From IMG/VR virus record IMGVR_UViG_2695420714_000022: a DNA stretch of 15,467 bases; one strand, written 5' to 3'. Every line of letters starts with the position of its first letter. Within the stretch, counting starts at the first letter, position 1. Below are positions 1 through 15,467 of this stretch, piece by piece. Made by a program: the position numbers and the translations under genes. The notes under the pieces were generated by a model. That model was not told the DNA's origin and did not search any database. It saw only the letters and a list, made by a program, of their open reading frames with translations. Origin of the DNA: a virus (Duplodnaviria; Heunggongvirae; Uroviricota; Caudoviricetes).

Positions 1-221
1 ACCCGCAAACCACACTTCCCTTTAAAACGCGTAACATACATTGCCTGCGTTTAACTTTCTTTGAACTCTTGCAGAAAAATGAGAATTCGTGAGTACGATC
101 ACTCAAAATCGCCTGGCAAAAATAAAATCACCCTATAGATGCACAAAAAACGGGCAAAACTACCTGGTTCGCAAAACTGCGTCTAAAGTTAAACCGGGAC
201 CTCGCGAGCAAGGGTGAGACG

Positions 222-290
222 ATGGCGCTTTACACAATTGGTGAAGTGGCGTTGCTTTGTGATATTAACCCTGTCACGTTACGCGCGTGA
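222..290 (+). pseudogene. mlrA: 5' fragment of a MerR-family regulator gene, cut off after 22 codons; probable prophage integration target
   Basis: ATG at 222 with upstream GGGTGAG translates to MALYTIGEVALLCDINPVTLRA then TGA at 288-290. This is a canonical MerR N-terminal helix-turn-helix, and from memory it matches the start of E. coli MlrA (YehV). The listed ORF 214..399 is in a different frame and has no such similarity. Confidence 0.55.
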
Positions 291-307
291 CGCAACATTT
301 TTAAAAA

Positions 308-387
308 TCGACGAAGATCGTCCAGGAGCGCCGTTTTTCAAGGGTTGGATAGATGATTCGTTTACCATGTCGACGAACTTCGACGAA
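308..387. repeat. Three direct copies of TCGACGAA next to the putative junction; candidate arm-type recombinase/RDF binding sites
   Basis: TCGACGAA at 308-315, 370-377 and 380-387, the last two tandem with a 2-bp spacer, all within 100 bp of the apparent host/prophage breakpoint. Confidence 0.35.
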
Positions 388-413
388 TTTCGCCGATAAA
401 AAGTGTCCCATAC

Positions 414-433
414 ATGCCCCATTGATGCCCCAT
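414..433. repeat. Tandem direct repeat ATGCCCCAT x2; candidate protein-binding site in the att arm
   Basis: ATGCCCCAT at 414-422 and 425-433, separated by TG. Confidence 0.3.
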
Positions 434-448
434 AAACAATATCAGGAA

Positions 449-477
449 TTGACACTGGTTATCCATACAGATAAAAA
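449..477 (+). promoter_or_regulatory. Candidate sigma70 promoter of the DinI-family gene
   Basis: Perfect TTGACA at 449-454; A/T-rich -10-like TAAAAA at 472-477 after a 17-bp spacer. The -10 is a weak match. Confidence 0.4.
455..470. promoter_or_regulatory. Weaker LexA-like box (CTG-N10-CAG) inside the promoter spacer
   Basis: CTGGTTATCCATACAG matches the LexA consensus CTGTATATATATACAG at about 12 of 16 positions; the left half-site is CTGG rather than CTGT. Confidence 0.35.
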
Positions 478-483
478 TAACAC

Positions 484-499
484 CTGTACATAACTACAG
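484..499. promoter_or_regulatory. LexA (SOS) box
   Basis: CTGTACATAACTACAG has the CTGT-N8-ACAG architecture, about 13 of 16 matches to consensus, sits downstream of the candidate -10 and 5 bp upstream of the AGGAGG RBS (504-509). Confidence 0.7.
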
Positions 500-514
500 T
501 TACAGGAGGGTGTT

Positions 515-763
515 ATGCGTGTTGAGATCTGTATCGCTAAAGAAAAAATCACTAAAATGCCAAACGGTGCTGTGGATGCGTTAAAGGAAGAATTAACCCG
601 ACGCATCAGTAAACGTTATGACGATGTAGAGGTGATCGTAAAAGCCACCAGCAACGATGGCCTTTCTGTTACGCGCACCGCCGATAAAGATTCAGCTAAA
701 ACTTTTGTTCAGGAGACTCTGAAAGATACCTGGAAGTCTGCTGACGAGTGGTTTTTTCACTAA
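515..763 (+). CDS. DinI-family DNA-damage-inducible protein (RecA modulator)
   Basis: 82 aa. MRVEICIAK...GAVDAL..ELTRRI...LSV...[15 protein letters not shown] is colinear with E. coli DinI as I remember it (MRIEV.IAK..GAIDAL..ELSRRI..LSV..QETWESADDWF). Strong AGGAGG RBS and a LexA box upstream. Confidence 0.85.
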
Positions 764-1035
764 TTAACACGTAAAATCGGTAACGGCTGGAAATCATTCA
801 ATACTCGCACTATCGAAAGTTCGCCAGCCAGCCGTGGCACGTTCTTGCATACGATGTGCTACGGTTTCATTCATCTCCGACCGGAAACTTCTTATACAAA
901 GTCGATACGCCAACATCATAGATGATCACCACCTTCTGGCGAGAAACTCCTGATGCAATTTGTCGTCCGGCCTGTGCCTATTGCTCCGGCGTGAGAGTAA
1001 TACAGTAAACTGTAGAAAAAGCCCATTAAACCTAA

Positions 1036-1041
1036 TATAAT
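1036..1041 (+). promoter_or_regulatory. Candidate -10 hexamer (TATAAT) for the acyltransferase moron
   Basis: Exact TATAAT about 40 bp upstream of the ATG at 1080; no good -35, and a palindrome (1001-1014) overlaps the -35 region. Confidence 0.3.
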
Positions 1042-1079
1042 AATAAGTTACAGAATTATCTTTACTGAATAATAGATAT

Positions 1080-1625
1080 ATGAATATTAGTGAACTTAAA
1101 AAGTGTATACACTATGAAGTAATAGGTTGTAAACGCCCTTTCTCCTGGCGAAAAGCAATTGTTCGCGCAATAAAACACAGAAGATCACGTTATTTATTTT
1201 GGTGGCGCATAGCAAAATATCTTTTTGATAAAGGCGGATACCGGCGAAAGATTGCAGGAAAAATAGAACGCTTCATTCTTGACAAATACAATGTAACCGT
1301 TCCCTTAACTGTAAATATTGGTAAAGGGTTCGACATATCTTATCTCAATGGCGTTGTTATCGGTCACAAAGTTACAATAGGTGAAAATTGTTCAATTAAG
1401 CCTGGGGTAACTATTGGACTTCGCGGTGAATTTAATGATATGGATATTGTCATAGGAAATAATGTAACCATTGGCTGTAACGCCACCATCCTTGGTGGCA
1501 AAGTGCATATAGGGAATAATGTAAAAATAGGAGCTCATGCATTGGTACTGCATGACATTCCTGATGACTCCACATTCATTACCAAATTTCACTCTGAAAT
1601 TATTTATAATTCATCTCACACATAA
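1080..1625 (+). CDS. Hexapeptide-repeat (left-handed beta-helix) acyltransferase; polysaccharide O-acetyltransferase-like
   Basis: 181 aa. Basic N-terminal segment with a WW motif (RRSRYLFWWRIAKYLF), followed by tandem hexapeptide repeats (VVIGHKVTIGENCSIKPGVTIG ... IVIGNNVTIGCNATILGGKVHIGNNVKIGAHALV). Architecture resembles WcaF/NodL/maltose-type acetyltransferases. The gene is AT-rich by eye compared with the flanking phage genes and has no obvious SD. Confidence 0.75.
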   Translation: MNISELKKCIHYEVIGCKRPFSWRKAIVRAIKHRRSRYLFWWRIAKYLFDKGGYRRKIAGKIERFILDKYNVTVPLTVNIGKGFDISYLNGVVIGHKVTIGENCSIKPGVTIGLRGEFNDMDIVIGNNVTIGCNATILGGKVHIGNNVKIGAHALVLHDIPDDSTFITKFHSEIIYNSSHT

Positions 1626-1635
1626 TTCCGTTTAA

Positions 1636-2208
1636 TCACAGCTCAGGCCATACGATATCCGGGGCTGTATTTATATCAATCCGACTCACTAATACCCGGT
1701 ATTTTTTCCAGGAAGATAGCATCGAAACCTCCTCATCAGTTGCCATTTCAAAATTAACAGCATCCTGCAGAATTGTTATGTTATCAGTCGCTTCCTGGAT
1801 TAATCTTGTCTTTTTCTCTTCCGCCTCCCGGATCCGGAAGAGTTTTTCTGCTTCCGTATCCTTCACCCAGGCTGTGCCGTTCCACTTCTGAAACTCCCCT
1901 TCCGGCGATAACCAGGTAACATTTTCCGGTAACGGACCGAGTTCCGAAATAAATAACGCGTCGCCGGAAGCCACGTCATAGACGGTTTTTCCCCGATGGT
2001 CTTCAACGAGATGCCACGATGCCTCATCACTGTTGAAAACAGCCACGAAGCCAGCCGGAATATCTGGCGGTGCAATATCGGTACTGTTTGCTGGCAGACC
2101 TGTATGAGGCGGAATATATGCGTCACCTTCACCAATAAATTCATTAGTTCCGGCCAGCAGATTATAAATTTTTATGGTCCGTGGTTGTTCAGTCATTCTA
2201 AAATCCAT
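1636..2208 (-). CDS. tfa: Tail fibre assembly protein (Tfa chaperone)
   Basis: [48 protein letters not shown]... matches lambda Tfa from memory. ATG at 2208 is preceded by GAGGTG; the ORF track starts two codons earlier at a GTG (2214). Confidence 0.9.
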
Positions 2209-2216
2209 GTTCACCT

Positions 2217-3107
2217 CTACTTAATATCAGAGACAGAATATTGTTTATTGAGCGTATGGGTGGGAGCACCAATAACGATGCTACTTCCGTGGCTATGTGC
2301 GCCAGAGGTGAGATTGCCTACGGGATTTTCTGGATTAAACCGGTGTGTATGCGAATCAGGGCGAGAGCGATTATTAGTCAGCACGTCATCAGCCTGATGC
2401 ACATGGCTAATACAGAACTGCCCGGAACGTGAGCAATACGTCCGATAATCGCCGCATCCAATATATTTAGTATCCGCATAACGGCAAACAGAATTACCCG
2501 GACAGTATGCATATGTGCCAAATACTGCCGACTGGCGGGATTGTGCGTATTCCCAGTTAATTGATTCTGTTTTTTTATTAAAGTTATCCCATGCCTGCTT
2601 CATCTGCCGGGCAACACTTTCAAACGGCACCTGACCACATCCGGCTCCCATTGCAGGGAATACCACAGTTTTTATTTTCCTGTCTGTCGTTGCGTGTTTA
2701 TTGTGCTGAAAGATGGCAAGCAGAGCGGCCCAGGTTGCGTTATATACAGCGTCTGTTCCGTCAATTGTCAGCGGAACACGCATTGTTGGCGCATGTACCA
2801 GCCAGGGGTGATGATTATGCCCCGTTTCAATTACAAATGCAGAACCTACAGGCTGTTCGCCTAAATATTCACGAAGAATATGATTCTGAACGCGGGACTG
2901 TAACTGAGTACCGAAGAATGCGGTAATGGCGGCATCAACGCCGCCATCCATCAGGCCGAAACTATTTGCCGCACTTACCATGCAGTCAAATTCTCTGATT
3001 GTTTCAAATGGCTTTCCGACAATATTCACATTATCTGCGTTTGCAAATACCCGCTTAAATGCTTCCGCCATTTCTGTTACTGGTGCAGAAAGAATGAGCG
3101 TAATCAT
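2217..3107 (-). CDS. Macro-domain (ADP-ribose binding/hydrolase-like) protein with Cys/His-rich C-terminal tail, inserted between stf and tfa
   Basis: 296 aa. Start ATG overlaps the stf stop (ATGA) and is preceded by GAGG; stop TAG at 2217-2219 lies 9 bp upstream of the tfa ATG. The N-terminal ~200 aa carry the MacroD-type signature N-x6-GG-V-D ([17 protein letters not shown]) and a second Gly-rich loop ([14 protein letters not shown]). The C-terminal ~100 aa have five Cys and HxH motifs (SHTH, AHSH). Confidence 0.75.
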
Positions 3108-6079
3108 GCAAGCCTCACAATATAGTTAAATGCGATGTTTTTGACGGTGTTTTCCGCGTTACCAGCAGCGTTAACGGTGATGGTGTGTCCATGTGAACCA
3201 ATCGCAACAGAGTGCGTATGAGCGCCAATACCAACTGTATGTGCATGCGCCCCTGCACTTGCAGCAGTGCCTGATACTGAGTGGGTGTGTGCACCAGAAG
3301 AAGGCACTGTTCCATTCCCCACGATCGTGCCACTTGATGAACCATCAAGCCAGTCGAAATTCATACCGCCACTGTTTGGTCTCCTTAATGGAACGGTATG
3401 AGTATGTGCGCCAGCACTATTTGCAGTACCAGATACATTGTGGGTATGTGCACCAGTGTTATTCGTGGATTTAGTGCCGTAATCAAAAGATGATGTGGTT
3501 TTCGTCCCCAAATCCGTACTGGATGCGCTGGCGCTGTGGGTGTGCGATTTAATGCCGTCCTGTTCCTGAGACAATACGGCCCGGCCACTGGCGGGTTTGC
3601 CCTTGATTGTCCAGCCGCGCATATCTGGAATAACACCTGAAGGATAGGCAATAGCCAGTTTCGGATATGCTGCCTTATCAAACGTCTGCCCCTGCATGAT
3701 TGCATAACCTGCAGGTGGTGTATCTGATGGCCACGGCAGCGGAACACCTGGCGGAAACGCTTCAATATTTGCCGAGCCGTCAAATTTTACGCCGTTAATT
3801 GTCCTTGCAGTTTGCAATTTGGTTGCTGTGCTTGCATTACCCGATAAAGATCCAGTGATACCACCACTCGCGTTTAATTTAGTTGCAATTGTAACATTGC
3901 CAGTATGGTTACTAATTATAAACGGCCTTAAGCTATTGTGCGTACCAAGACTGTTACCCGAATCTGTCAACATAAAATATGTGTTTGATCCATCATTTCG
4001 GATAAAGAATCCATAGTTGCCATAGGCAATACGCAGACCATTTGCTGACCTTGAAATAACCTCACCAGCAGCAGTTAAACCACCTGAAAGAGTCCCTCCA
4101 GTTAATGCCAATGCCCCAATATTTGAAGGGGTCAATGTGATATTTGCACTACCATCAAATGACACACCGTTAATCGTTCTGGCTGCCTGAAGTTTCGTGG
4201 CGGTCGCAGCATTACCTGTAGTGTTTTGATTACCGGTAGCGTTGACTCCAGGCAAGTTGATATCTGCCGATCCATCAAATGCCACGCCCCCAATCTTACG
4301 TGCTGTCTTGATCTTGGTCGCAGTATCTGCGTTTCCGGTCAAATTACCAGTAACACTACCACCAACTTTTAGTCCATTACCGATGGACACCAACCCTGAT
4401 CTTAAGTTTATAGAGAATGGTCTTAATGAACCGATGTCTCCATTTTCCCCCTCCCCTTCATTAGTCGGAATAAGATGAAGATGATCTTCGGAACGCCTAA
4501 AAATAAGGCCAAAGGCTTGGTTGAATATTCGAAGAGCATTTATCGTGCTGATTTTTAACTGCCCTCCCATTGTGTCGCCAGTTTTTTGAACTGAACTATC
4601 TTTAACAGTTTTAACTGCCTTTGGCGTTGCCGCCAGCTTTTCACTGGTGCTGTTTGTTGCACTGCTGAGCTGTACTATCCCCTTTTTCGTCGTGCTCGCA
4701 TCCTCCAGCGCCACGGCGGATGCAATATCCTCTGCCCGTTTTGCTGCTGTCTCGGCGCGCGTTGCCGCGGATTCAGCAGCAACTTTGCTCTGAGATGCAG
4801 CCGTCGCACTGCCTGCTGCCTCTGATGCTTTCGTTGTTGCTGTCGTGGCACTACCTTTCGCTGCTGACGCTTGTCTGGTCGCCTCATCTTTTGAAGCAGA
4901 CGCAGATGATGCCGATGACGCCGCTGAACTGGCTGACGATGCGGCTGCCGCCTTAGAGGAAGCAGCATTGTCTGCTGAAGTCTTTGCATTTGTTTCAGAG
5001 GTTTTTGCTGCAGAAGCAGACCTCGCTGCTGCAGTGGCTTGCTCAGTGGCTTTGCCAGCCTTCGTTGTGGCTGTTGAAGCGGATGATGCGGCGCTTTCTG
5101 CCGATTTTCCGGCGGCGGTGGCACTGGCTGAGGCCTGCCCGGCACTTGTTGACGCGGCACTGGCAGATAATGCAGCCGCTGTTTTTGAACCTGCCGCAGC
5201 TGAGGCGCTCTGTCCCGCTGCTGTTTCAGAAGACTTAGCGTTCGTCTCGGACGTTTTTGCCGCCTTCGCGGAATTTCCTGCCGCCGTTGCCGAGGAAGCT
5301 GCACTACTGGCACTTGATGATGCATTCGTTTCTGAAGATTTCGCTGCCTCTTTTGAGGCCGCCGCACCCCGTGCCGAGGTGGCAGCTTCTGACGCCTTCG
5401 TGGTCGCTGTGGATGCAGAAGTGGCTGCCGATTTTTGTGATGCTGCGGCATTCGTTTCTGACGTTTTCGCGGCACTGGCGCTGGTAGCTGCCGCGCTTTT
5501 TGATGACTCTGCAGCAGCAGCACTTTTTGCTGCTTCACGGGCCTTTGTCGATGCCGTTCCTGCGCTGGAAGACGCTGACTGAGCCGACGACGCGGCCTGT
5601 CCGGCTGACGTGCTGGCGGCACGTGCTGAGGCTGCAGCATCGGTTGCATGAGTTGCCGCCTCGCTGGCTGATGCACTGGCATCGCTGGCTGATTTTTTCG
5701 CGGCTGCCGTATTCTGTGCAACCGCGGAGGCGTTACGTGACACCTCTTCCACCATCTGCTCAAAGCGGCGCAGTGCCTCCGGTCGGACATCATCCTCCGT
5801 CATGGCACCGAGAAAATCATTCAGCGTACCTGGTCTGGAACCTTCATAGACGGTAATGGTCCCGGCATGTGAAGGCGGAAAACCTTCAACCAGCAGGGTG
5901 ACGCTGTACTGGCCATGCTCAACATCCATGCTGTAACGTCCGGCTTCATCCGGATTTTCAGAGGCCACCGTGTTCACCACCACCGTGCTGCTGGTTCGTC
6001 TGGCCTTCAGCACAATGGTGCAGTTCTGTACTGGTTTTCCTGTGCCATCTTTAAGCACGCCAGAAATTTTTACTGTCAT
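3104..6079 (-). CDS. stf: Side tail fibre protein (Stf), mosaic
   Basis: 991 aa. N-terminus [22 protein letters not shown]... and C-terminus ...[40 protein letters not shown] match lambda Stf from memory. Contains a long Ala/Ser-rich low-complexity segment and a central module with three ~30-aa tail-fibre repeats. Confidence 0.9.
3779..4345 (-). repeat. Three in-frame coding repeats (~90 bp each) inside stf
   Basis: Protein repeats [29 protein letters not shown] / [29 protein letters not shown] / [29 protein letters not shown]; the corresponding DNA repeats are visible near 4255-4345, 4138-4216 and 3779-3850. Confidence 0.7.
4760..5720 (-). repeat. Ala/Ser/Thr-rich low-complexity coding region of stf (approximate bounds)
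   Basis: Roughly 320 aa dominated by A, S, T and K with recurring AAKTSETNA / SASSAASSA units. The GC-rich repetitive DNA generates long spurious ORFs in other frames on both strands. Confidence 0.8.
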
Positions 6080-6092
6080 ACTTTTCCACCAA

Positions 6093-6125
6093 TAAAAAAA
6101 GCCCGCAGCAGTGACGCCACGGGCT
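6093..6125 (-). terminator. Candidate rho-independent terminator after lom
   Basis: Stem AGCCCG (6100-6105) / CGGGCT (6120-6125) with a 14-nt loop; on the minus strand it is followed by a run of seven T (complement of 6093-6099). Confidence 0.45.
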
Positions 6126-6230
6126 TCAGGACAGTGTAACTTTACGTTTCCTCAAACGCAGTTCACCCCATAAGGTGGATGAACCTGCGTATCATAACAA
6201 TATTTACAGAAGATAAATCGGCGTCTGTTG

Positions 6231-6830
6231 TCAGAAACGGTATCCGATACCAACAATAAATGCATCCGTTCGCCAGTCGCCACTACCGGAACCTTCATAA
6301 GCAAGGTCAATGGCCACGGATTCTGTCGGGTTAAACTGCACGCCAGCCCCCCACGCCAGAGACGTGTTGCTGTGGCGACCGTCATCACTTCCGGTCAGCA
6401 CGTCGTGCGTTTTCCCCTTGTTGTCAGTTACGCGGAGATAATCCCCGGAGAAAGTCGACACACGGCTGTAAGCCATACCCGCCATCACATACGCGCTGAA
6501 CCATTCATTCACGCGCACAGACGGCCCCGCCATCACGCTGAACCAGCGGTTACGCACGGAATCTTCATGCCAGCGGGTATCGCTGTAGTGCGTTTTTTGC
6601 TCATCCTCAGCATTGGCATAACTGAAGGACGTAATCAGCCCCAGCGCGTCCGTAAACTCATAACGGTATTTCACGTTAATCCCGTTCAGATTATCGCTGC
6701 CGGGAGCGTTCGTACGGGCATGAAGATACCCCGCGCTCAGTGTGGACTGATATTCAGACGCCCATGCAGGCGCACCGGATACGGACAGACAGATGGCTGC
6801 GGACAAAATGGCTGCACAAACTTTACGCAT
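6231..6830 (-). CDS. lom: Ail/Lom-family outer membrane beta-barrel protein
   Basis: 199 aa. Signal peptide MRKVCAAILSAAICLSVSGAPAWA and C-terminal ...GIGYRF; near-identical to lambda Lom from memory. GAGG RBS 7 nt upstream. Confidence 0.9.
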   Translation of the reverse strand: MRKVCAAILSAAICLSVSGAPAWASEYQSTLSAGYLHARTNAPGSDNLNGINVKYRYEFTDALGLITSFSYANAEDEQKTHYSDTRWHEDSVRNRWFSVMAGPSVRVNEWFSAYVMAGMAYSRVSTFSGDYLRVTDNKGKTHDVLTGSDDGRHSNTSLAWGAGVQFNPTESVAIDLAYEGSGSGDWRTDAFIVGIGYRF

Positions 6831-6851
6831 AATTACCTCTCGCTTTTCTGC

Positions 6852-6878
6852 AATAAAAAAGGCGCCATTTCTGGCGCC
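6852..6878 (-). terminator. Candidate rho-independent terminator between J and lom
   Basis: Stem GGCGCCA (6861-6867) / TGGCGCC (6872-6878) with 4-nt loop; on the minus strand followed by TTTTTTATTG. Confidence 0.55.
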
Positions 6879-6897
6879 CGTATATGGGTTATAAAAT

Positions 6898-9800
6898 TCA
6901 GCTGATACTGATGCCTGCGGTGGCTTTCTTCATCACCACAACCAGCAAATCGCTGATACATGCTGTGGGATACCAGTTATTCACCAGCCATGCTGACACC
7001 GAAAACTCCAGCGTCATGTGACCGTGACCGGCAGGCATATCAATAACACCACTGTAAATCAGCGTATTATCCAGCGCGGTACGGTTATAAATTTCAGCAC
7101 CGTTTTTCCGCACTATCAGACGGCATGAGGAGTAAATATCAGTATGCTCTTTCTCATGTTTAGCGCCGCTGAATGCCACCGCCGGAATAACAATCTGCCG
7201 GTCAAACGGCTGATCGTCATAAACCCTGACGGTAATGGTCCCTGATGGCCACCGCTCCGGTGCACGGGAGTCCCGGGGGAAAGCTTTGCCCACTGTTTTA
7301 ACGAGATCGCCTTCAATCTGGTTGGCGGACAATTTTCCCAGAACCCGACAGTTCTCGTTAATCGTGACGTTGTTGAGCGTCCCGGAGTTCGCATTCACGT
7401 TACCGCTGATATCGGCATTTTTCGCCGTCAGCCGCCCGTCCGGTGTCAGGGAAAATGCCGGAGGATTACCGCCGCTGGTAATGGTCGGAGCTGTCAGGCG
7501 TTTCAGGAACACGTCGTTCATGAATATCTGATCGCCCTGACCAACAAACATCGGCTTTGTGTTGCCATTCGCAGGATTAATCATCGCAATCCGGTCAGCA
7601 GCCAGAAGCACCTGACTCTGCATACCTGCTGGCGTATTCCCAATACCGGCTCCGATACCCGCAATATAAAGGCGTCCGTCCTTCATCTGCTGCAGTTTCA
7701 CGGCCCACATGCTGTTCAGGTTATTATTTGTATCAACCTGAACTTTCTGTATCTGCTGGATTGCCGCACTCTGGTCTTCCAGTTTTTTATTGACGGTCTG
7801 CGTGATTTCATTGCTGACATTCGTAATGGACGTCCTGATTTCAGCCAGGTCCGGCGCAAGCTGACCGTTATCAATCTGCGTCCACAACTCCTGGGCCAGA
7901 TGTGTTTTCCCGATTTCTCCTTTGAAAAAATCCAGGTAACCTTCCGCATCATCGCTCGCCCGACCGACAGCCTCCACGAATGCCGATTTGCCAACGGTGT
8001 TCACACTGCGAACGTAAAAATAATAATCATGGCCCGGTTTGATATTGATACTGGCGGCTATCCAGTACAGCGCCGTACCAAGATAGCGGGCTGTGGTTTC
8101 AACCTGCCTGATATCGGTAATCCGCTTTTCCGAGAACCAGAACTCAAACTGTACCGTCGGGTCATAAACAGCAAGATGCGGCGTGGCGGTTATCTGAAAA
8201 TAGCCCGGCGTCAGCTCAATCCTCGACGGTGCTGCCGGTGCGGCAATCCGGAACGATACCGACGCCGGATCGCCCTGCTGCCCCCGGGCATTTACCGCCC
8301 GGACTGTCAGCCTGTAGTTCCCCAGCGCCAGTTGCGTGAAGCGGTATGTGGTTTCCGTCGTCCGGGCCGTGCTGACCAGTCGCTCACTGCCGTCGTCCGC
8401 TGTTACGGTCAGACGGAGCAGGAAGCTCACGCCCTTCACCACCTTCGGTGTGTCCCATCGCGCCAGCACCTGATATTCCCCGCTGTCTGCAGTGACTTCG
8501 GCGGTCAGGTGCTGCACTGCTGGCGGCGTGACACCATTCACCGTGCCGCTCTGGTCACCGTCAAAGTGCGCCCCGTTATCCACGATGGCTTCTTTCTCCG
8601 GTACATGCTGCACGGCGGTGATGGCATACGTGCCGTCATCGTTCTCACGGATACTCACGCAGCGGAACAGGCGCTGGCGCAGCGTCGGCAGCTTCAGCCC
8701 CCACACGCTGTATTCTGCAACGCCGTCAGGAACACGGCTCACTTTCACCTTCACGCCGTCGGTGACGGACTGGACCTCCACGCTGACCGGATTACCCTGA
8801 CCGTCAACCAGGCTTATCAGCGTGGTACCGGAGGATGGCAGCGTGATTTCACGGTCGAGCGTCAGCGTCCGGGTCTGGCTGTTCACCGCCAGCACGCGCC
8901 CGCCGGTGCTGATACCCGCATAGTCATCATCGCAGATTTCAATGACATCCCCCGGTACATGGCGAAGCCCTTCCGCACCCACGCTGAAGTCCACGGTCTG
9001 CGTTTCCAGCAGTTCCGTTTTAATCAGCCACAGCCCGGCGCGGTGCGCCTGCCCCCGGCTGGTACAGCCAAAGGCATCCATCTTCGTGACGTTACGACCG
9101 TAACGGGCAATGGCCTGCGTATCTTCAACAAGCTCTGTCGCCGTCTCCCAGCCGTTATCCGGGTCAATCCAGTTCACCTCAACGGCATTATGACGGTCCT
9201 TCAGGGCACTGAAGCTGTAGCGGAACGGCGCGCCATCATCCGGCATCACCACATTACTGCGGTTATAGGTCCACACCTTATCCGACGGTCGGTCCTGCAC
9301 GAACGTCAGCGTCTGCCCGTTCCATACCGGCATACAGCGCATCGCCGAGCAGAAATCACTGAGAACATCCCACGCCTTGCGCTGTGTGGTCAGGTAGGCA
9401 TTACAGGTGATGCGCGGCTCCGTGCCACCAAAGCCATCCGGCACCGACTGGTCGCAATTCTGGCCGATGACATACAGCGCCCATTTGTCCACATCCGCCG
9501 CACCGAGACGCTTCCCCATGCCGTAGCGCGGATGGGTCAGCATATCCCACAGACACCAGGCCATGTTGTTGCTGTATGCTGGCTTAAACGTTCCGTCCCA
9601 GATACCGCTGTATTGCCGCGTCTGCGGGTTATAGTTCGACGGCACCTGCAGAATGCGCCCGCGAAGATGATAATTACGGCTCACCTGCTGGCTGCCGAAC
9701 TGTTCCGAGTCCACCTGCACGCCGACCAGTGCCGTGTTCGGGTAGCCCTGTTTCACATCGATGATTTCGGTGTATGACGACCAGAGCGTTTTGTTCTGCA

Positions 9801-10377
9801 GCTGGTCTGTGGTGCTGTCCGGCGTCATTCTGCGCATCCGGATATTAAACGGGCGCGGCGGCAGGTTATCCACCACCACCGAGGCCAGATACTGCGAGGT
9901 GGTTTTGCCCTTAATGGTGATGTCTTTTTCCGTCACCCAGCCACCGTTACGCTGGATCTGAACCAGCAGGCGGACTTCCGACGGATTCCTGTCCCCCTTT
10001 GAGGTGGTTTCCACCAGTGCCTGCACACCGAAGGTAAAGCGCAGACGGTCGATGTTTGCCGACGTGATGGTCCGGGTGATCGGCGTGTCATATTTCACTT
10101 CCGTACCCAGCACCGTCTCGGAGCCGGAGGATTCAAATCCCTCCGGCGGTGTCTGCTCCTGCTCACCTGCCCGGAACACCACCGTGACACCGGATATATT
10201 GGTATTCCCCTCACTGTCCAGCACCGGCGTACTGTTCAGCAGCACGCTTTTTAATCCGTCCACCGGACCTTCAACCGGCCCTTCGCTGATGGCATCGATC
10301 ACACTCAGCAGCTGCGTGGACTTCAGGTTGTCCCTCGCTTCGCGCGGGGTATGCCCCTTACTGCTTCCTTTACCCAT
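6898..10377 (-). CDS. J: Tail tip / host specificity protein J (central tail fibre)
   Basis: 1159 aa, lambda J-like throughout, with C-terminus ...[45 protein letters not shown] resembling the LamB-binding end of lambda J from memory. GAGGA RBS immediately upstream. Confidence 0.95.
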
Positions 10378-10400
10378 TCCTCACACTCCATAAACAACAA

Positions 10401-10419
10401 AGCCGCCCAAAAGGCGGCT
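10401..10419 (-). terminator. Candidate terminator downstream of the lipoprotein moron
   Basis: Stem AGCCGCC / GGCGGCT with 5-nt loop; on the minus strand followed by TTGTTGTTTAT. Confidence 0.45.
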
Positions 10420-10443
10420 CATGAGTTACGACAGGATTAACTA

Positions 10444-10782
10444 TTATTTACATGCATTAACACTATCAGCAAAAATTTTTGGCGTTAATGCTGGTACACG
10501 TTCATAAAGAGTAAAACTACTGCCATTTCCTGCTTTTTTGATATCAAGCACAACATCATATCCCCCCATAGCCTGTGGAACTAAAAGGCTTACCCCATTC
10601 TCAATAGGAAGGGATGTTATAGGTGTTCCATTACCAGCCCATTGTCTGGATATGCAGCCTGACAATTCATCAATATTTTTTAATGAATTACCTTCCATTA
10701 CAGGTTTTCCGGATTTTACGTAATCCAAAGATTTACATCCTGTTAAGGCAATAATCGTGCAGAATAAAATCGTTTTGTTCAT
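10444..10782 (-). CDS. Small secreted lipoprotein; moron inserted between I and J
   Basis: The second Met of the ORF gives MNKTILFCTIIALTGC, a textbook signal peptide with lipobox L-T-G-C. Mature protein is about 95 aa with two more Cys. The ~480-bp I-J gap is AT-rich by eye, unlike the flanking tail genes; RBS is weak. Confidence 0.6.
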   Translation of the reverse strand: MNKTILFCTIIALTGCKSLDYVKSGKPVMEGNSLKNIDELSGCISRQWAGNGTPITSLPIENGVSLLVPQAMGGYDVVLDIKKAGNGSSFTLYERVPALTPKIFADSVNACK

Positions 10783-10855
10783 ATAGCTAACCAATAGAAT
10801 AATTATCAGTGTTCGATATAAATATTAAATTAGTTAGAACATGAGTAAAATAATA

Positions 10856-11497
10856 TTACCGCCCAATTACCACAACCTGACCACCATCCCCTTCATCTGC
10901 CGTGCTAATCTCCTGAGATGCCACACGTGACCCCACGCGCATTTCACCGTACAGAACAGGCAGGACATTGCCCTGGGCAACCATGTTATCCAGTGAGGAG
11001 AAATAGGTGTTCTGTTTGCCGTTATCCGTTGTCTGTGTACGGGGAGTTCTGGCTTTCGGTGCCAGCATCTGCGCCACACCACCAAGCGTCATCGCCGCAC
11101 CCATTGAAAAGAGAATGTCACTGAAAGCGATACTGATCCCCGGCATCCAGATTGCCGTAGCAATCAACGCCGCACCCAGCACCGCCTGAAACACACCGCC
11201 ACTTTTTGCTCCCGCAAGACGCGGCACGATGTGGATCACGGCACCATTTGCCAGCGGCTCATTAAGACGGGATGATAATTCGGTTTCTCCTGCATCCCGC
11301 CCGGCAATCCGTACCTGATACCAGCCATCGCTCAGTTTCTGACGAAACGCCGGGAGCTGTGTGGCCAGTGCCCGGATGGCTTCAGCCCCCGTTTTCACAC
11401 GAAGGTCGATGCGGCGGCCAAATCGTTGCAAATCCCCGTAAAGGCAGATGCGTGCCATTCCCGGTGACGCCAGAGGGAGTGTGTGCGTCGCTGCCAT
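10856..11497 (-). CDS. I: Tail assembly protein I
   Basis: 213 aa. MAATHTLPLASPGMARICLYGDLQRFGRRIDLRVKTGAEAIRALATQLPAF... and C-terminus ...ISTADEGDGGQVVVIGR are lambda I-like from memory. Overlaps the 3' end of K. Confidence 0.85.
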   Translation of the reverse strand: MAATHTLPLASPGMARICLYGDLQRFGRRIDLRVKTGAEAIRALATQLPAFRQKLSDGWYQVRIAGRDAGETELSSRLNEPLANGAVIHIVPRLAGAKSGGVFQAVLGAALIATAIWMPGISIAFSDILFSMGAAMTLGGVAQMLAPKARTPRTQTTDNGKQNTYFSSLDNMVAQGNVLPVLYGEMRVGSRVASQEISTADEGDGGQVVVIGR

Positions 11498-12138
11498 TTG
11501 TCGGTATACCTCTCTCGTTTACTCAGTTGTTCAGGAATATGGTGCAGCAGCTCACCGTCGCCGCAGTAAATGGCGGCGTGATTCGGCACCGATGAACCAA
11601 AACAGCACAGCAGCACATCGCCCGGCTGCGCCTCTGTCAGTGCGACACGGTAAAAACCAGTAGCCTCCATATTGTCAAGATAGAGATTCTGACCGTGACG
11701 CCACCAGTCATCCCCGCGATGAAAATCCGGCATCTCAATCCCCGCCAGATGGTAAGCATCCCGGAACAGTGTGTAACAGTCCGTCACCCCGTACTCAAAG
11801 CGCCGCCCGGTGAGATGCGGCACACAGCGGAACTTGTGAATCGCCCCCCGGCAGACCAGCCACCACGGCAAATCGCTCTGCACCTGCAGCCGCCGGTCAG
11901 CCTCACTCAGCCAGGGCAGACCACCGGGGTGGCTGTGGACCAGCGCCACAATCTCACCCTGCATCTCTGCCTGCAGCCAGTCCTCCGGAGCCATCCGGAA
12001 ATACGCCTCCGGCTCACCGGAGATATTCACGCAGGGGAAATATCTTTCCCCCTCCGGTGTTCTCACCACGAAGCCGCACGACTCCGCTGGCGCACATCGC
12101 CGGGCGTGCGCCAGAATCGCTGATTCTGTCTCTGTCAT
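11395..12138 (-). CDS. K: Tail assembly protein K (JAB/MPN metalloprotease plus NlpC/P60-like domain)
   Basis: Starts at MTETESAILAHARRCAPAESCGF..., with the ATG 5 bp after the L stop. JAMM motif HSHPGGLPWLSEAD (H-x-H-x7-S-x2-D). The 3' end overlaps I by about 100 bp, so the exact stop used is uncertain. Confidence 0.85.
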   Translation of the reverse strand: MTETESAILAHARRCAPAESCGFVVRTPEGERYFPCVNISGEPEAYFRMAPEDWLQAEMQGEIVALVHSHPGGLPWLSEADRRLQVQSDLPWWLVCRGAIHKFRCVPHLTGRRFEYGVTDCYTLFRDAYHLAGIEMPDFHRGDDWWRHGQNLYLDNMEATGFYRVALTEAQPGDVLLCCFGSSVPNHAAIYCGDGELLHHIPEQLSKRERYTDKWQRRTHSLWRHREWHASAFTGICNDLAAASTFV

Positions 12139-12142
12139 GGGA

Positions 12143-12841
12143 TTACTGCGAAAGTTTGTTAATGGAAAGGAAGCCGCCAAAGTTGCCGACGTTATTGCGA
12201 AACTTACAGCCGCTCAGGCATTTGCTGCATTTATCCTTCGTGATATCGGACGTCGGCTGGTCATATTCATCCGCGACTGCCGGACCGTGATAACCGCACT
12301 CATCACCGCGATAGGTCCAGGTGCAGGTGTTGGCCAGCATGATACGCCCCGGAAAAACAGCGCCATCCGTTTCTGTCGGCGTGGACAGTACAAAGGAGGC
12401 ACTCACCGCGCTCAGTTCGCTGCACTGCTCGATGCGCCAGCGGCTGATCACCTCCTGCTCCGGATCGGCGTCTCTGTTTCCGTTGACGAAGTTCACCGCA
12501 TCCAGAAAACGGGCGTAAACCTTACGCCGGACCACCGTTCCGCCGACCAGACTCTGCATATCTTCCACCATACCGGTGACCATGCCGTACAGGTTAGAGA
12601 CTGCCAGCGTGGGCCGCGTACTGGTGCCTTTGCCATTCAGTTCAAAACCGCTCCCCTGAATGGGATACGCCTGATACTGCCTCCCCTGCCAGGTGACCGG
12701 CTCACCTTTTTCGTTCTGCTCATTACAGAAAAAATAACGTTCTCCACCGACCTCTGTCAGATCGATTTCCCAGAGCACCACGCTGGCCGACTGCTCCGCA
12801 CGGGTGCATTCATTCAGTGTTTCCTGCCGGATATCCTGCAT
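12143..12841 (-). CDS. L: Tail tip protein L
   Basis: 232 aa, same length as lambda L. MQDIRQETLNECTRAEQSASVVLWEIDLTEVGGERYFF... with a C-terminal Cys cluster (C-x-x-C-x-x-x-C). Start ATG overlaps the M stop (ATGA). Confidence 0.9.
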   Translation of the reverse strand: MQDIRQETLNECTRAEQSASVVLWEIDLTEVGGERYFFCNEQNEKGEPVTWQGRQYQAYPIQGSGFELNGKGTSTRPTLAVSNLYGMVTGMVEDMQSLVGGTVVRRKVYARFLDAVNFVNGNRDADPEQEVISRWRIEQCSELSAVSASFVLSTPTETDGAVFPGRIMLANTCTWTYRGDECGYHGPAVADEYDQPTSDITKDKCSKCLSGCKFRNNVGNFGGFLSINKLSQ

Positions 12842-13170
12842 CAGTTCACCACCTGTTTAAACTCTGCGCTGAACCCAACACGCAACATACTGACCTGCGA
12901 CGACCATTTTGCGCAGGTCACCTTTATCTGCCTGTAACCATAAGGCGGCGTCCACAGAAAGGCCTTCCAGCCCCCGTGCTCAGCCAGAAACGACTCCAGC
13001 GCCGTGGCCTCCTCACGGGAGACAGACAGCGTCACGCTGTACGTTTTCAGGTCAGCGTTCAGCCCGGCAGGCGCACGCTGGGAATAGCCATCACCAAAGC
13101 GCACCTCCCTGACGGAAGGAGCCGATGTCACATCCATCCCGGGTTTCACTTTCCAGCGGAAGGTCTTCAT
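12841..13170 (-). CDS. M: Tail tip protein M
   Basis: 109 aa, same length as lambda M. MKTFRWKVKPGMDVTSAPSVREVRFGDGYSQRAPAGLN... Start ATG overlaps the H stop (ATGA). Confidence 0.9.
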   Translation of the reverse strand: MKTFRWKVKPGMDVTSAPSVREVRFGDGYSQRAPAGLNADLKTYSVTLSVSREEATALESFLAEHGGWKAFLWTPPYGYRQIKVTCAKWSSQVSMLRVGFSAEFKQVVN

Positions 13171-15467
13171 CGTCCACCTCCGGAGAACAGTCCACCATCA
13201 CGCATCTGTGTCTGAATTTCATCACGGGCACCCTTGCGGGCCATGTCATACACCGCCTTCAGAGCAGCCGGACCTATCTGCCCGTTCGTGCCGTCGTTGT
13301 TAATCACCACATGGTTATTCTGCTCAAACGTCCCGGACGCCTGCGACCGGCTGTCAGCCAGACTGCCCGGTGTACCGACATAACCACCGGTGGCATAGCC
13401 GCGCATCAGCCGGTAGAGATTCCCCACGCCAATCCGGCTGGTTGCCTCCTTTGTGAAGACAAATTCACCACGGTGAACAATCCCCGCTGGCTCATATTTG
13501 CCGCCGGTTCCCGTAAATCCTCCGGTTGCAAAATGGAATTTCGCCGCAGCGGCCTGAATGGCTGTACCGCCTGACGCGGATGCGCCGCCACCAACAGCCC
13601 CGCCAATGGCGCTGCCGATACTCCCGACAATCCCCACCATTGCCTGCTTAAGCAGAATTTCTGTCATCATGGACAGCACGGAACGGGTGAATCCCCGCCA
13701 GTTCTGTTCGCTGCCGGTCAGCATCGCCGCCATATTCTGTGCAATACCGTCAAAGGTCTGCGTGGCCACACTTTTAACCTGCGAAAAACTGTCCGTCGCA
13801 CTTTCCGCCCACTCTCCCCAGCCGGACTTCATCCCGGCCATCCAGCTTCCACGAAGCTGCTCCTCCGCAGACCAGGTGTTCTTCAGTGCCGATGTGGCCT
13901 TCGCCAGCGCAGCCGGATTATCACCGTACACCTCACGAAGGCGCTGCTCTTCCGACTCCCGCTGCGCCTGACGGTCGGTGAGGCCGCGGGCTTTTGCGCT
14001 GATTGCCGCCTGCTTCGCGCTTTGCTGCTGTTCAAACCGCGCCGCCTGCTGTGCCAGCTCATTCAGCCGCTTCTGGTGTTCAATCTTGTCTCCCAGCTCA
14101 GCCAGCTGGCGTTTGTACTCCAGCGTCTCTTTCTCATGAGCCAGCAGGGATTTTTCCTGCTCAGATAACTGCCGTTTCGTGGCGGCCTCTTTCAGGACCA
14201 CATACTGACTTTCCGCTTCCCATAAATCCCGGCGCTGCTGGCTGATTTTCTCATTCACACCGCTGTGTTTTTCCAGCGTCCTGAGCTCGGTTTCAAGCGC
14301 CAGCAGGGCTGCATGCGCCCGGTCTTCCTGGCGCTCACCGGCAGACACCTTCACACCTGACGGCTTTTTCAGCGTCGATTCATAATCCTTTTTTGCCGAC
14401 GCCATCAGCGTGTTGTAATCCGCCTGCAGGATTTTTCCGTCTTTCAGGGCCTTATTCAGCTCTTTCTGACGGGCGGTATATTTATCCAGCGGCGTCTGCA
14501 GGCGCTCATACGCCTTCTGCGCCTCTCCGGTATACTTCAGCTGTGACGACTCACGCTCAGCCCTGTCCCTTGCCGCCAGTTCACCGGCTTTTTCCATATC
14601 CGACTGCAGCGTGGCCGCTGCCAGACCCAGACGGGCATTTTCCCGGTCATCCCATGCCCCCTGAAGGTTCGCACGAAAAGAGGAGGTCTTTCCCCGGCGC
14701 TGGCTCCGGCTCTGGTACCACTGCCATTTTTTATCCGCCTCATCAAATGCCTTCTGCGCACTGGCGAGCATATCCGCTGAGGATTCCGGACGACCGATAT
14801 CCAGAATGGCATCCCACATCGATTTGAATGCCTTCCCTGTTTTATCCGCCCAGGTCTCCAGTGTTCCCATGTTTTCTTTCAGGCGACGGGTCTGCTCATC
14901 AAAGCCTTTCGTGGCGATATCGTTCGCCGCCTGCAATGCCCCGGCCTCGTCTCCGGAACGCTGCAGCTGTGCAACATACGCAATCTGCTCTGCCGTCACG
15001 TTACGGAACTGGCGCGCCATCGCCATCAGTCCCGACGTCGGGTCAGTGGTCAGCTTCCCGAAGGCTTCAGCGACTTTATCCACCTCCACACCGGATGCAG
15101 ACGCAAAACGCGCGACACTCTGGTTGATGGCATCAAACTGTTCACCACCACGCACACCGGCATTCACCAGGGCTGCCAGTGACTCTCTCGCCTGGTTAAA
15201 CGTCAGCCCTGCTGCCTGCCCGGCTCTTGAGAGCGTCAGCATACGATCGGCAGTCAGTCCGGCCTGATTGCCGGAAAGGACCAGCGTTTTATTAAATTCT
15301 GAAAGCGTGGCGTCGCCCTGGTACCAGGCGTACGCCAGCGCACCTGTCGCCACCGCCAGCGAGGTGACCCCGACCATCGGCAGGGTGATCGCACCGGCAA
15401 GCCCCCTGAACATGGGGATCATCCCGCCGAAGGAGTCCTTCACCTGACCGCCCTGTTGCAGCAGGAT
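13167..15467 (-). CDS. H: Tail tape measure protein H, 5'-truncated by the window edge
   Basis: The frame is open to the last base of the window; the listed start at 15443 is an internal GTG. C-terminus ...NNDGTNGQIGPAALKAVYDMARKGARDEIQTQMRDGGLFSGGGR and the coiled-coil-rich middle are lambda H-like from memory. Confidence 0.9.
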   Translation of the reverse strand: MLLQQGGQVKDSFGGMIPMFRGLAGAITLPMVGVTSLAVATGALAYAWYQGDATLSEFNKTLVLSGNQAGLTADRMLTLSRAGQAAGLTFNQARESLAALVNAGVRGGEQFDAINQSVARFASASGVEVDKVAEAFGKLTTDPTSGLMAMARQFRNVTAEQIAYVAQLQRSGDEAGALQAANDIATKGFDEQTRRLKENMGTLETWADKTGKAFKSMWDAILDIGRPESSADMLASAQKAFDEADKKWQWYQSRSQRRGKTSSFRANLQGAWDDRENARLGLAAATLQSDMEKAGELAARDRAERESSQLKYTGEAQKAYERLQTPLDKYTARQKELNKALKDGKILQADYNTLMASAKKDYESTLKKPSGVKVSAGERQEDRAHAALLALETELRTLEKHSGVNEKISQQRRDLWEAESQYVVLKEAATKRQLSEQEKSLLAHEKETLEYKRQLAELGDKIEHQKRLNELAQQAARFEQQQSAKQAAISAKARGLTDRQAQRESEEQRLREVYGDNPAALAKATSALKNTWSAEEQLRGSWMAGMKSGWGEWAESATDSFSQVKSVATQTFDGIAQNMAAMLTGSEQNWRGFTRSVLSMMTEILLKQAMVGIVGSIGSAIGGAVGGGASASGGTAIQAAAAKFHFATGGFTGTGGKYEPAGIVHRGEFVFTKEATSRIGVGNLYRLMRGYATGGYVGTPGSLADSRSQASGTFEQNNHVVINNDGTNGQIGPAALKAVYDMARKGARDEIQTQMRDGGLFSGGGR

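Follow-up and report, generated by a model that had tools for sequence, protein, structure and literature searches.

The window (the whole stretch of 15,467 nucleotides analysed here) opens with chromosomal DNA of the btsS–mlrA region and passes, within the 5′ end of mlrA (yehV), into a phage attachment arm followed by dinI, accessory genes and a block of lambdoid tail genes (Table 1). Its first base is the first base past the btsS coding sequence in the K-12 annotation. Positions 1–289 consist of the intergenic region and the first 68 nt of mlrA, and their identity to the intact-mlrA genomes among the matches listed is 99.3–100%. The original prediction, made from the sequence alone, had noticed a MerR-type helix-turn-helix (HTH) start that is stopped after 22 codons, and this is what translation gives: MALYTIGEVALLCDINPVTLRA is a 22-codon ORF that begins at the ATG at 222 and ends with the TGA at 288–290. 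Its assignment to the N-terminus of MlrA (YehV) was also correct, as the peptide is identical to residues 1–22 of K-12 MlrA at 22 of 22 positions (tblastn, E = 3e-10) and the region upstream is 99–100% identical.

Table 1 Features of the window, with the evidence for each.
Position	Strand	Feature	Evidence or remark
1–221	+	btsS(yehU)–mlrA intergenic region, complete, chromosomal	K-12 annotation; identity to intact-mlrA genomes
222–290	+	Truncated mlrA (yehV'), 22 native codons and TGA	Alignment, tblastn
270–289	+	att core (common sequence) CCTGTCACGTTACGCGCGTG, 20 bp	Matches AP000400 annotation, both prophage ends
272–292	.	Imperfect inverted repeat TGTCACG-N7-CGTGACG, spacer TTACGCG, across core/arm boundary	Repeat search
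290–447	+	Phage att arm, tail/dinI side (lambda P-arm position)	One mismatch to VT1-Sakai; phi330 contiguity
308–315, 370–377, 380–387	+	TCGACGAA repeats, three copies in arm	Repeat search
403–433	+	GTGTCCCAT / ATGCCCCAT / ATGCCCCAT direct repeats	Repeat search
449–478	+	Promoter-like sigma-70 site TTGACA-18-AAAAAT	Motif, ahead of dinI
484–499	+	LexA SOS box CTGTACATAACTACAG	Motif, ahead of dinI; same elements annotated in VT1-Sakai
515–763	+	Phage dinI, 82 aa, RecA-filament-binding DinI-like	Pfam DinI 1e-18; PHROG 189
1080–1625	+	Hexapeptide-repeat acetyltransferase, accessory/moron	Pfam, PHROG 2154; 35% GC
1636–2214	-	Tail fibre assembly protein	Pfam Caudo_TAP 6e-38
2217–3107	-	Macro-domain protein, 296 aa	Pfam Macro 9e-19; PHROG 2613 (function unknown)
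3104–6079	-	Side tail fibre, 991 aa	Pfam phage_tail_N, Gp34_trimer, Collar
6231–6830	-	Lom/Ail outer-membrane protein	Pfam Ail_Lom 1e-124
6898–10377	-	Tail tip attachment protein J, 1159 aa, single uninterrupted ORF	Pfam GpJ domains
10444–10794	-	Small ORF between I and J, 116 aa	PHROG 914 (function unknown), 8e-33; GC 0.40
10856–11497	-	Tail assembly I	Pfam Lambda_tail_I
11395–12180 (ORF limits)	-	Tail assembly K	Pfam Prok-JAB and NLPC_P60
12143–12841	-	Tail assembly L	Pfam Phage_tail_L
12841–13170	-	Tail assembly M	Pfam Phage_min_tail
13167–15467	-	Tape measure H, 5′ end past window edge	Pfam TMP_2 (from profile position 48), Tape_meas_lam_C

The breakpoint is sharp. In the pairwise alignment with K-12, a single silent difference (AAC in the window, AAT in K-12) is present up to 289, and similarity is absent afterwards, where K-12 reads TGG CAG AGG and the window reads TGA CGC AAC ATT TTT. 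The first phage base is the final A of the TGA (position 290), at a codon that is TGG (Trp23) in intact mlrA. Because the divergence begins after 289 and the first phage base completes the TGA, the stop codon is made by the junction itself. The MerR HTH of MlrA spans residues 4–72 (MerR_1) or 5–42 (MerR) according to Pfam, and the stub therefore retains only the first portion of the DNA-binding domain. Full-length MlrA searched against the window by tblastn in any frame matched nothing besides the stub at 222–290, and 2.5 kb of K-12 DNA from beyond the breakpoint gave no blastn match to the window. Thus, in place of a full-length MlrA with its complete HTH and its helical and C-terminal domains, the window holds a 22-codon fragment and lacks 221 codons. 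Neither of the two outcomes that would have contradicted the original prediction, a failure of 222–290 to align with mlrA or an intact MerR gene in a corrected frame, was found by alignment, tblastn or blastn, and alignment to the uninterrupted gene, the check it had proposed, placed the breakpoint after 289 and the core at 270–289.

The distribution of the junction was assessed in 5,426 complete E. coli genomes, every one of which matches the window when positions 1–800 are used as the query. With probes scored as present at 80% coverage or more, a 241-nt probe with the junction at its centre was found in 475 genomes (approximately 9%), and an empty-site probe for the uninterrupted mlrA site was covered in 4,944. 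Published oligonucleotides for this integration site map where they are expected: primer A (AAGTGGCGTTGCTTTGTGAT; primer sequence via PMC3874044) at 244–263, a deletion primer at 306–325, and the dinI-based primer yehV-inR (ACAGCACCGTTTGGCATTTTAG) at 552–573. The positions of these junction-PCR primers were counted for the reading of a prophage in mlrA. Primer E of Shaikh and Tarr, from the classic right-junction assay (sequence via PMC3874044), has no match in the window, a consequence of the divergence from Sp15 that sets in after dinI.

The window has a single copy of the 20-bp core CCTGTCACGTTACGCGCGTG, the stretch common to attB and attP, where 0.01 copies would be expected, and its match is therefore not due to chance. 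In AP000400 (VT1-Sakai, O157:H7 Sakai), yehV', 'yehV and a 20-bp "attachment site of VT1-Sakai" are annotated at both ends of the prophage. The core of the window is that attachment site, which bears out the original statement that mlrA is an integration site of lambdoid prophages, including the Stx1 phage of O157. The AAC allele lengthens the identity with the integrase-side copy (...TTAATCCCTGTCACGTTACGCGCGTGGCAG) to position 269, giving 21 bp (269–289). The inverted repeat at 272–292 is probably a pair of candidate core-type integrase half-sites rather than a terminator; a hairpin at the core showed no significant gain in stability over shuffled sequence (z = -1.6). The yecE-integrating and ompW-prophage relatives also have the phage-side half-site TGACGCAACA and all of the tail-side arm in conserved form. 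Two more copies of the GTGTCCCAT/ATGCCCCAT motifs are present in the opposite arm, within the 3′ end of int, and we regard these repeats as candidate arm-type integrase sites. That they are a relic of another att site was considered and rejected, since the arm is shared over its full length with the yecE and ompW phages, whose cores lie at the corresponding position.

An attP rebuilt from the integrase-side and tail-side arms finds a contiguous match in phi330 (100% coverage, 95.7% identity), and int, core and tail-side arm are contiguous in that phage record. In the same record (vB_EcoS_phi330, PV189401.1; L005, 3418–3457), which is described as a "complete phage genome", the 20-bp core is perfectly duplicated in tandem. 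The record was likely circularised from prophage ends with both flanking copies of the core, and the tandem arrangement is then not a true attP form.

Downstream of the arm, Pfam matches to DinI, tail fibre assembly, tail fibre, Lom, J, I, K, L, M and tape measure proteins are in accord with the original description of this DNA as phage-like. As dinI, the side tail fibre, J and the tape measure gene follow the break, the junction is also the tail-proximal one, as proposed. Short gene remnants lie at 760–1000 on the minus strand, where close relatives are annotated with a 31-aa "capsid protein" fragment and an HTH pseudogene with an internal stop; they are debris at a mosaic joint, where the match to VT1-Sakai ends (~860). 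The acetyltransferase gene (1080–1625) is opposed in direction to the tail genes, as is typical of a moron. PGAP names its product "serine acetyltransferase" in relatives, and no function is known for PHROG 2154. The macro-domain gene separates the side tail fibre gene from the fibre assembly gene and has a 4-nt overlap with the fibre stop. The exact macro-domain protein was found in 412 blocks of a public collection, where the prophages that carry it occupy various chromosomal locations; candidate roles are ADP-ribose removal, counter-defence or a fibre-associated enzyme. Positions 10409–10859, around the PHROG-914 ORF, were unaligned in every locus compared, and in one locus (L013) the place of this ORF is occupied by an 84-aa gene. 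The tape measure gene is not interrupted, although the ORF list gives it a GTG start at 15443: its frame is open to the window edge, and the gene is cut by the window.

None of the 5,426 complete E. coli genomes contains the whole window (megablast with the full window and with positions 1–3200); the best covers 83% of it, at another locus. The closest mlrA-integrated relative (L015) matches 1–10408 at 99.0% and the remainder at 92%. Window positions 6271–13377 recur at 99.5% in L013, where the chromosomal surroundings are different (potB/potA-like transporter, pepT, phoQ/phoP side).

The window is the tail-side 15.5 kb of the element; int/xis, the second core, the immunity region and the late-regulatory region with any stx genes lie outside it, and the context is inferred from mosaic relatives. 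The original prediction had advised looking for the 3′ part of mlrA and an integrase at the other prophage end, and both were found in related genomes. NZ_CM136152.1 carries window positions 1–834 at 100% identity and, approximately 43 kb further on, an excisionase, a 428-aa tyrosine recombinase, the core, mlrA from codon 17, yohO and yehW. No annotated stx is present between Q and the lysis genes in this relative. The mlrA prophage of PRO_A-1504 (L002, L003) has the att core at both ends. A deleted remnant (L012, CM127658.1) retains two cores, directly repeated at a distance of 10.8 kb, and over its tail-side 3.7 kb it shares 99% identity with the window; an IS transposase adjoins its macro-domain gene. 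The integrases of the mlrA prophages are 98–100% identical to that of VT1-Sakai. In these relatives, where the integrase gene can be seen, its product has the Pfam domains Arm-DNA-bind_2 (2e-24) and Phage_integrase (5e-18), and Xis belongs to DUF1233.

The distal part of mlrA, 221 codons, is located just downstream of int, at a distance of 10.8 kb in the deleted remnant and approximately 43 kb in the full-length prophage. It has neither a promoter of its own nor an ATG, GTG or TTG start before Met68. In NZ_CM136152.1 (L003, 22799–23500), PGAP calls this fragment a 233-aa non-pseudogene MlrA (WP_032300430.1) with an ATT start, and it labels the 5′ mlrA stub "hypothetical protein". The ATT lies five codons after an in-frame TAA, and the first six residues, ISLPLI, are phage-derived. 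WP_032300430.1 lacks MlrA residues 1–16, to which ISLPLI is unrelated, and so its MerR HTH is without its beginning.

The closest known system is VT1-Sakai (Sp15; CP-933V of EDL933), which has the same target, yehV = mlrA, the same attachment site and the same breakpoint. As in prophages of the Sp15/933V type, the break falls at mlrA codon 23, at the 20-bp core, and positions 290–520 are one base off VT1-Sakai. Over 200–520 the two sequences are likewise one base apart, and over 1–859 they are 98.1% identical. The gene order dinI, side fibre, lom, J, I, K, L, M and H is also shared. Past ~860, however, the place of the acetyltransferase gene is taken in VT1-Sakai by a ykgJ-like gene, the macro-domain gene is missing from that phage, and its tail genes are only 82–85% identical to those of the window. 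Its J is split into two CDSs by mutation, whereas J of the window is intact, which indicates that at least the tail-tip gene of the window prophage is not degraded. Given this divergence after dinI, the window prophage is a mosaic relative of Sp15/VT1-Sakai and not that phage itself. The same junction and integrase type are found in PRO_A-1504-6M-A, B19374, GCA_037641125.1, JLK-2012, YYZ-2008, BP-4795 and Stx2a_1447. The non-Stx and other mlrA prophages are each a different mosaic past att/dinI, and none of those searched contains the whole window.

The arrangement resembles that of phage lambda in its tyrosine integrase with an N-terminal arm-binding domain, in the short core found as direct repeats at the prophage ends, in the 2 + 3 arm repeats across the two arms, and in the position of int beside attP with xis upstream, the integrase sites here being predicted ones. 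It differs from lambda in core sequence and target. Lambda attB lies in the gal–bio intergenic region, whereas the mlrA prophage sits inside a protein-coding gene. The yecE and ompW-prophage phages (LC567829, LC567834) share the tail-side arm and dinI at 85–98% identity and have a similar core that ends in ...TG followed by ACGCAACATTTTT. Their cores differ from the mlrA core in the left half (GCCCGTCACTTTAACTGCATG against CCCTGTCACGTTACGCGCGTG), and this difference accounts for the different chromosomal target. When window positions 290–447 are compared with L017 (340–460) and L018 (1820–2000), the cores of these yecE and ompW-prophage phages prove to be related, with the form ...GTCACnTTAAC.GCATG followed by ACGCAACA. 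The comparison suggests an integrase family with a shared arm architecture, in which target specificity may have shifted through the left half of the core.

We conclude that the window almost certainly represents the integrase-distal, tail-side junction (the equivalent of lambda attR) of a lambdoid prophage of the Sp15/VT1-Sakai (CP-933V) integration type, which entered mlrA by site-specific recombination mediated by a tyrosine integrase. The integration site and the junction are already known, and this is a textbook case. Two refinements to the original prediction are that non-Stx prophages share the site and that the window prophage is a mosaic relative of VT1-Sakai. Judging from the repeats, the integrase would bind the GTGTCCCAT/ATGCCCCAT repeats in both arms and TGTCACG...CGTGACG at the core, and strand exchange would take place within or near the ACGCGCGT segment. 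Insertion leaves the 22-codon mlrA stub, ended by TGA, behind the native promoter, and excision with Xis would be expected to rejoin mlrA exactly. As long as the prophage is integrated, the cell would lack the MlrA DNA-binding domain, and according to the literature the expression of csgD, curli and biofilm would be reduced.

Among the other explanations, the one that survives best accepts the junction as real and takes the element to be a decayed remnant, unable to excise or to form particles, with the disruption of mlrA fixed. Remnants with exactly this end do exist, such as L012, which keeps approximately 10.8 kb between its cores and has the IS transposase beside the macro-domain gene, and a 20-kb non-Stx prophage in yehV has been described (PMC8309913). 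In the window, however, the tail genes from the tape measure to fibre assembly are all uninterrupted ORFs with full-length Pfam matches, J is intact at 1159 aa compared with the split J of VT1-Sakai, and full-length prophages of ~43 kb with this junction are found. Decay is unlikely, though it is still an explanation to be taken seriously. A more elaborate proposal is that the window derives from an uncharacterised non-Stx mosaic, in which an Sp15-type mlrA att/int module is combined with a different tail-fibre and accessory set (macro-domain protein, acetyltransferase, PHROG-914 ORF), and that its SOS-linked excision and reintegration would act as a reversible curli/biofilm switch in a non-O157 background. 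We consider this improbable.

It has also to be asked whether, at the integrase side, mlrA is given a new 5′ end by the prophage and MlrA function is thereby retained. The 233-aa non-pseudogene mlrA CDS called by RefSeq/PGAP directly after int in NZ_CM136152.1 (WP_032300430.1) would fit such an arrangement; int is transcribed toward the distal mlrA, so that read-through transcripts are plausible, and distal mlrA fragments are expressed after induction (PMC5931665). Against this, the distal CDS has an ATT start and the phage-derived ISLPLI in place of MlrA residues 1–16, the first part of the HTH, and on these sequence grounds we rejected a functional mlrA rebuilt at the integrase side. In addition, distal fragments produced via read-through restored some Congo-red binding but neither biofilm formation nor csgD expression (PMC5931665). 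Retention of MlrA function by this route is accordingly very doubtful. A reading with no insertion at all, by a nonsense point mutation (the TGA differs from TGG at the break by a single base) or by an assembly misjoin of mlrA to unrelated phage DNA, is scarcely credible and is refuted by the end of mlrA similarity at 289 with no more mlrA in the window, by the identical junction in 475 complete genomes, and by the expected direct repeat flanking the junction in relatives.

With the prophage in mlrA as the preferred reading, what the junction means for the host follows from documented cases. The original prediction held that a curli/biofilm regulator is disrupted, and such insertions are on record: prophages in mlrA abolish curli and biofilm (PMC3874044, PMC5931665), and a small proportion of cells regain an intact mlrA by excision (PMC5931665). 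Lambdoid prophages without Stx also occupy yehV (PMC8309913). The promoter-proximal stub of 22 codons is predicted to be incapable of binding DNA.

The value of these data is in annotation and strain typing, not in discovery. Automatic annotation can mask the disruption, with the stub called "hypothetical protein" and the distal fragment called an intact MlrA in at least one genome. For typing, the classic yehV right-junction primer E would miss the mosaic of the window, whereas a primer placed in dinI would pick it up. Strains that carry this junction are expected to be deficient in MlrA, and so to form little curli and csgD-dependent biofilm, except where the prophage excises.
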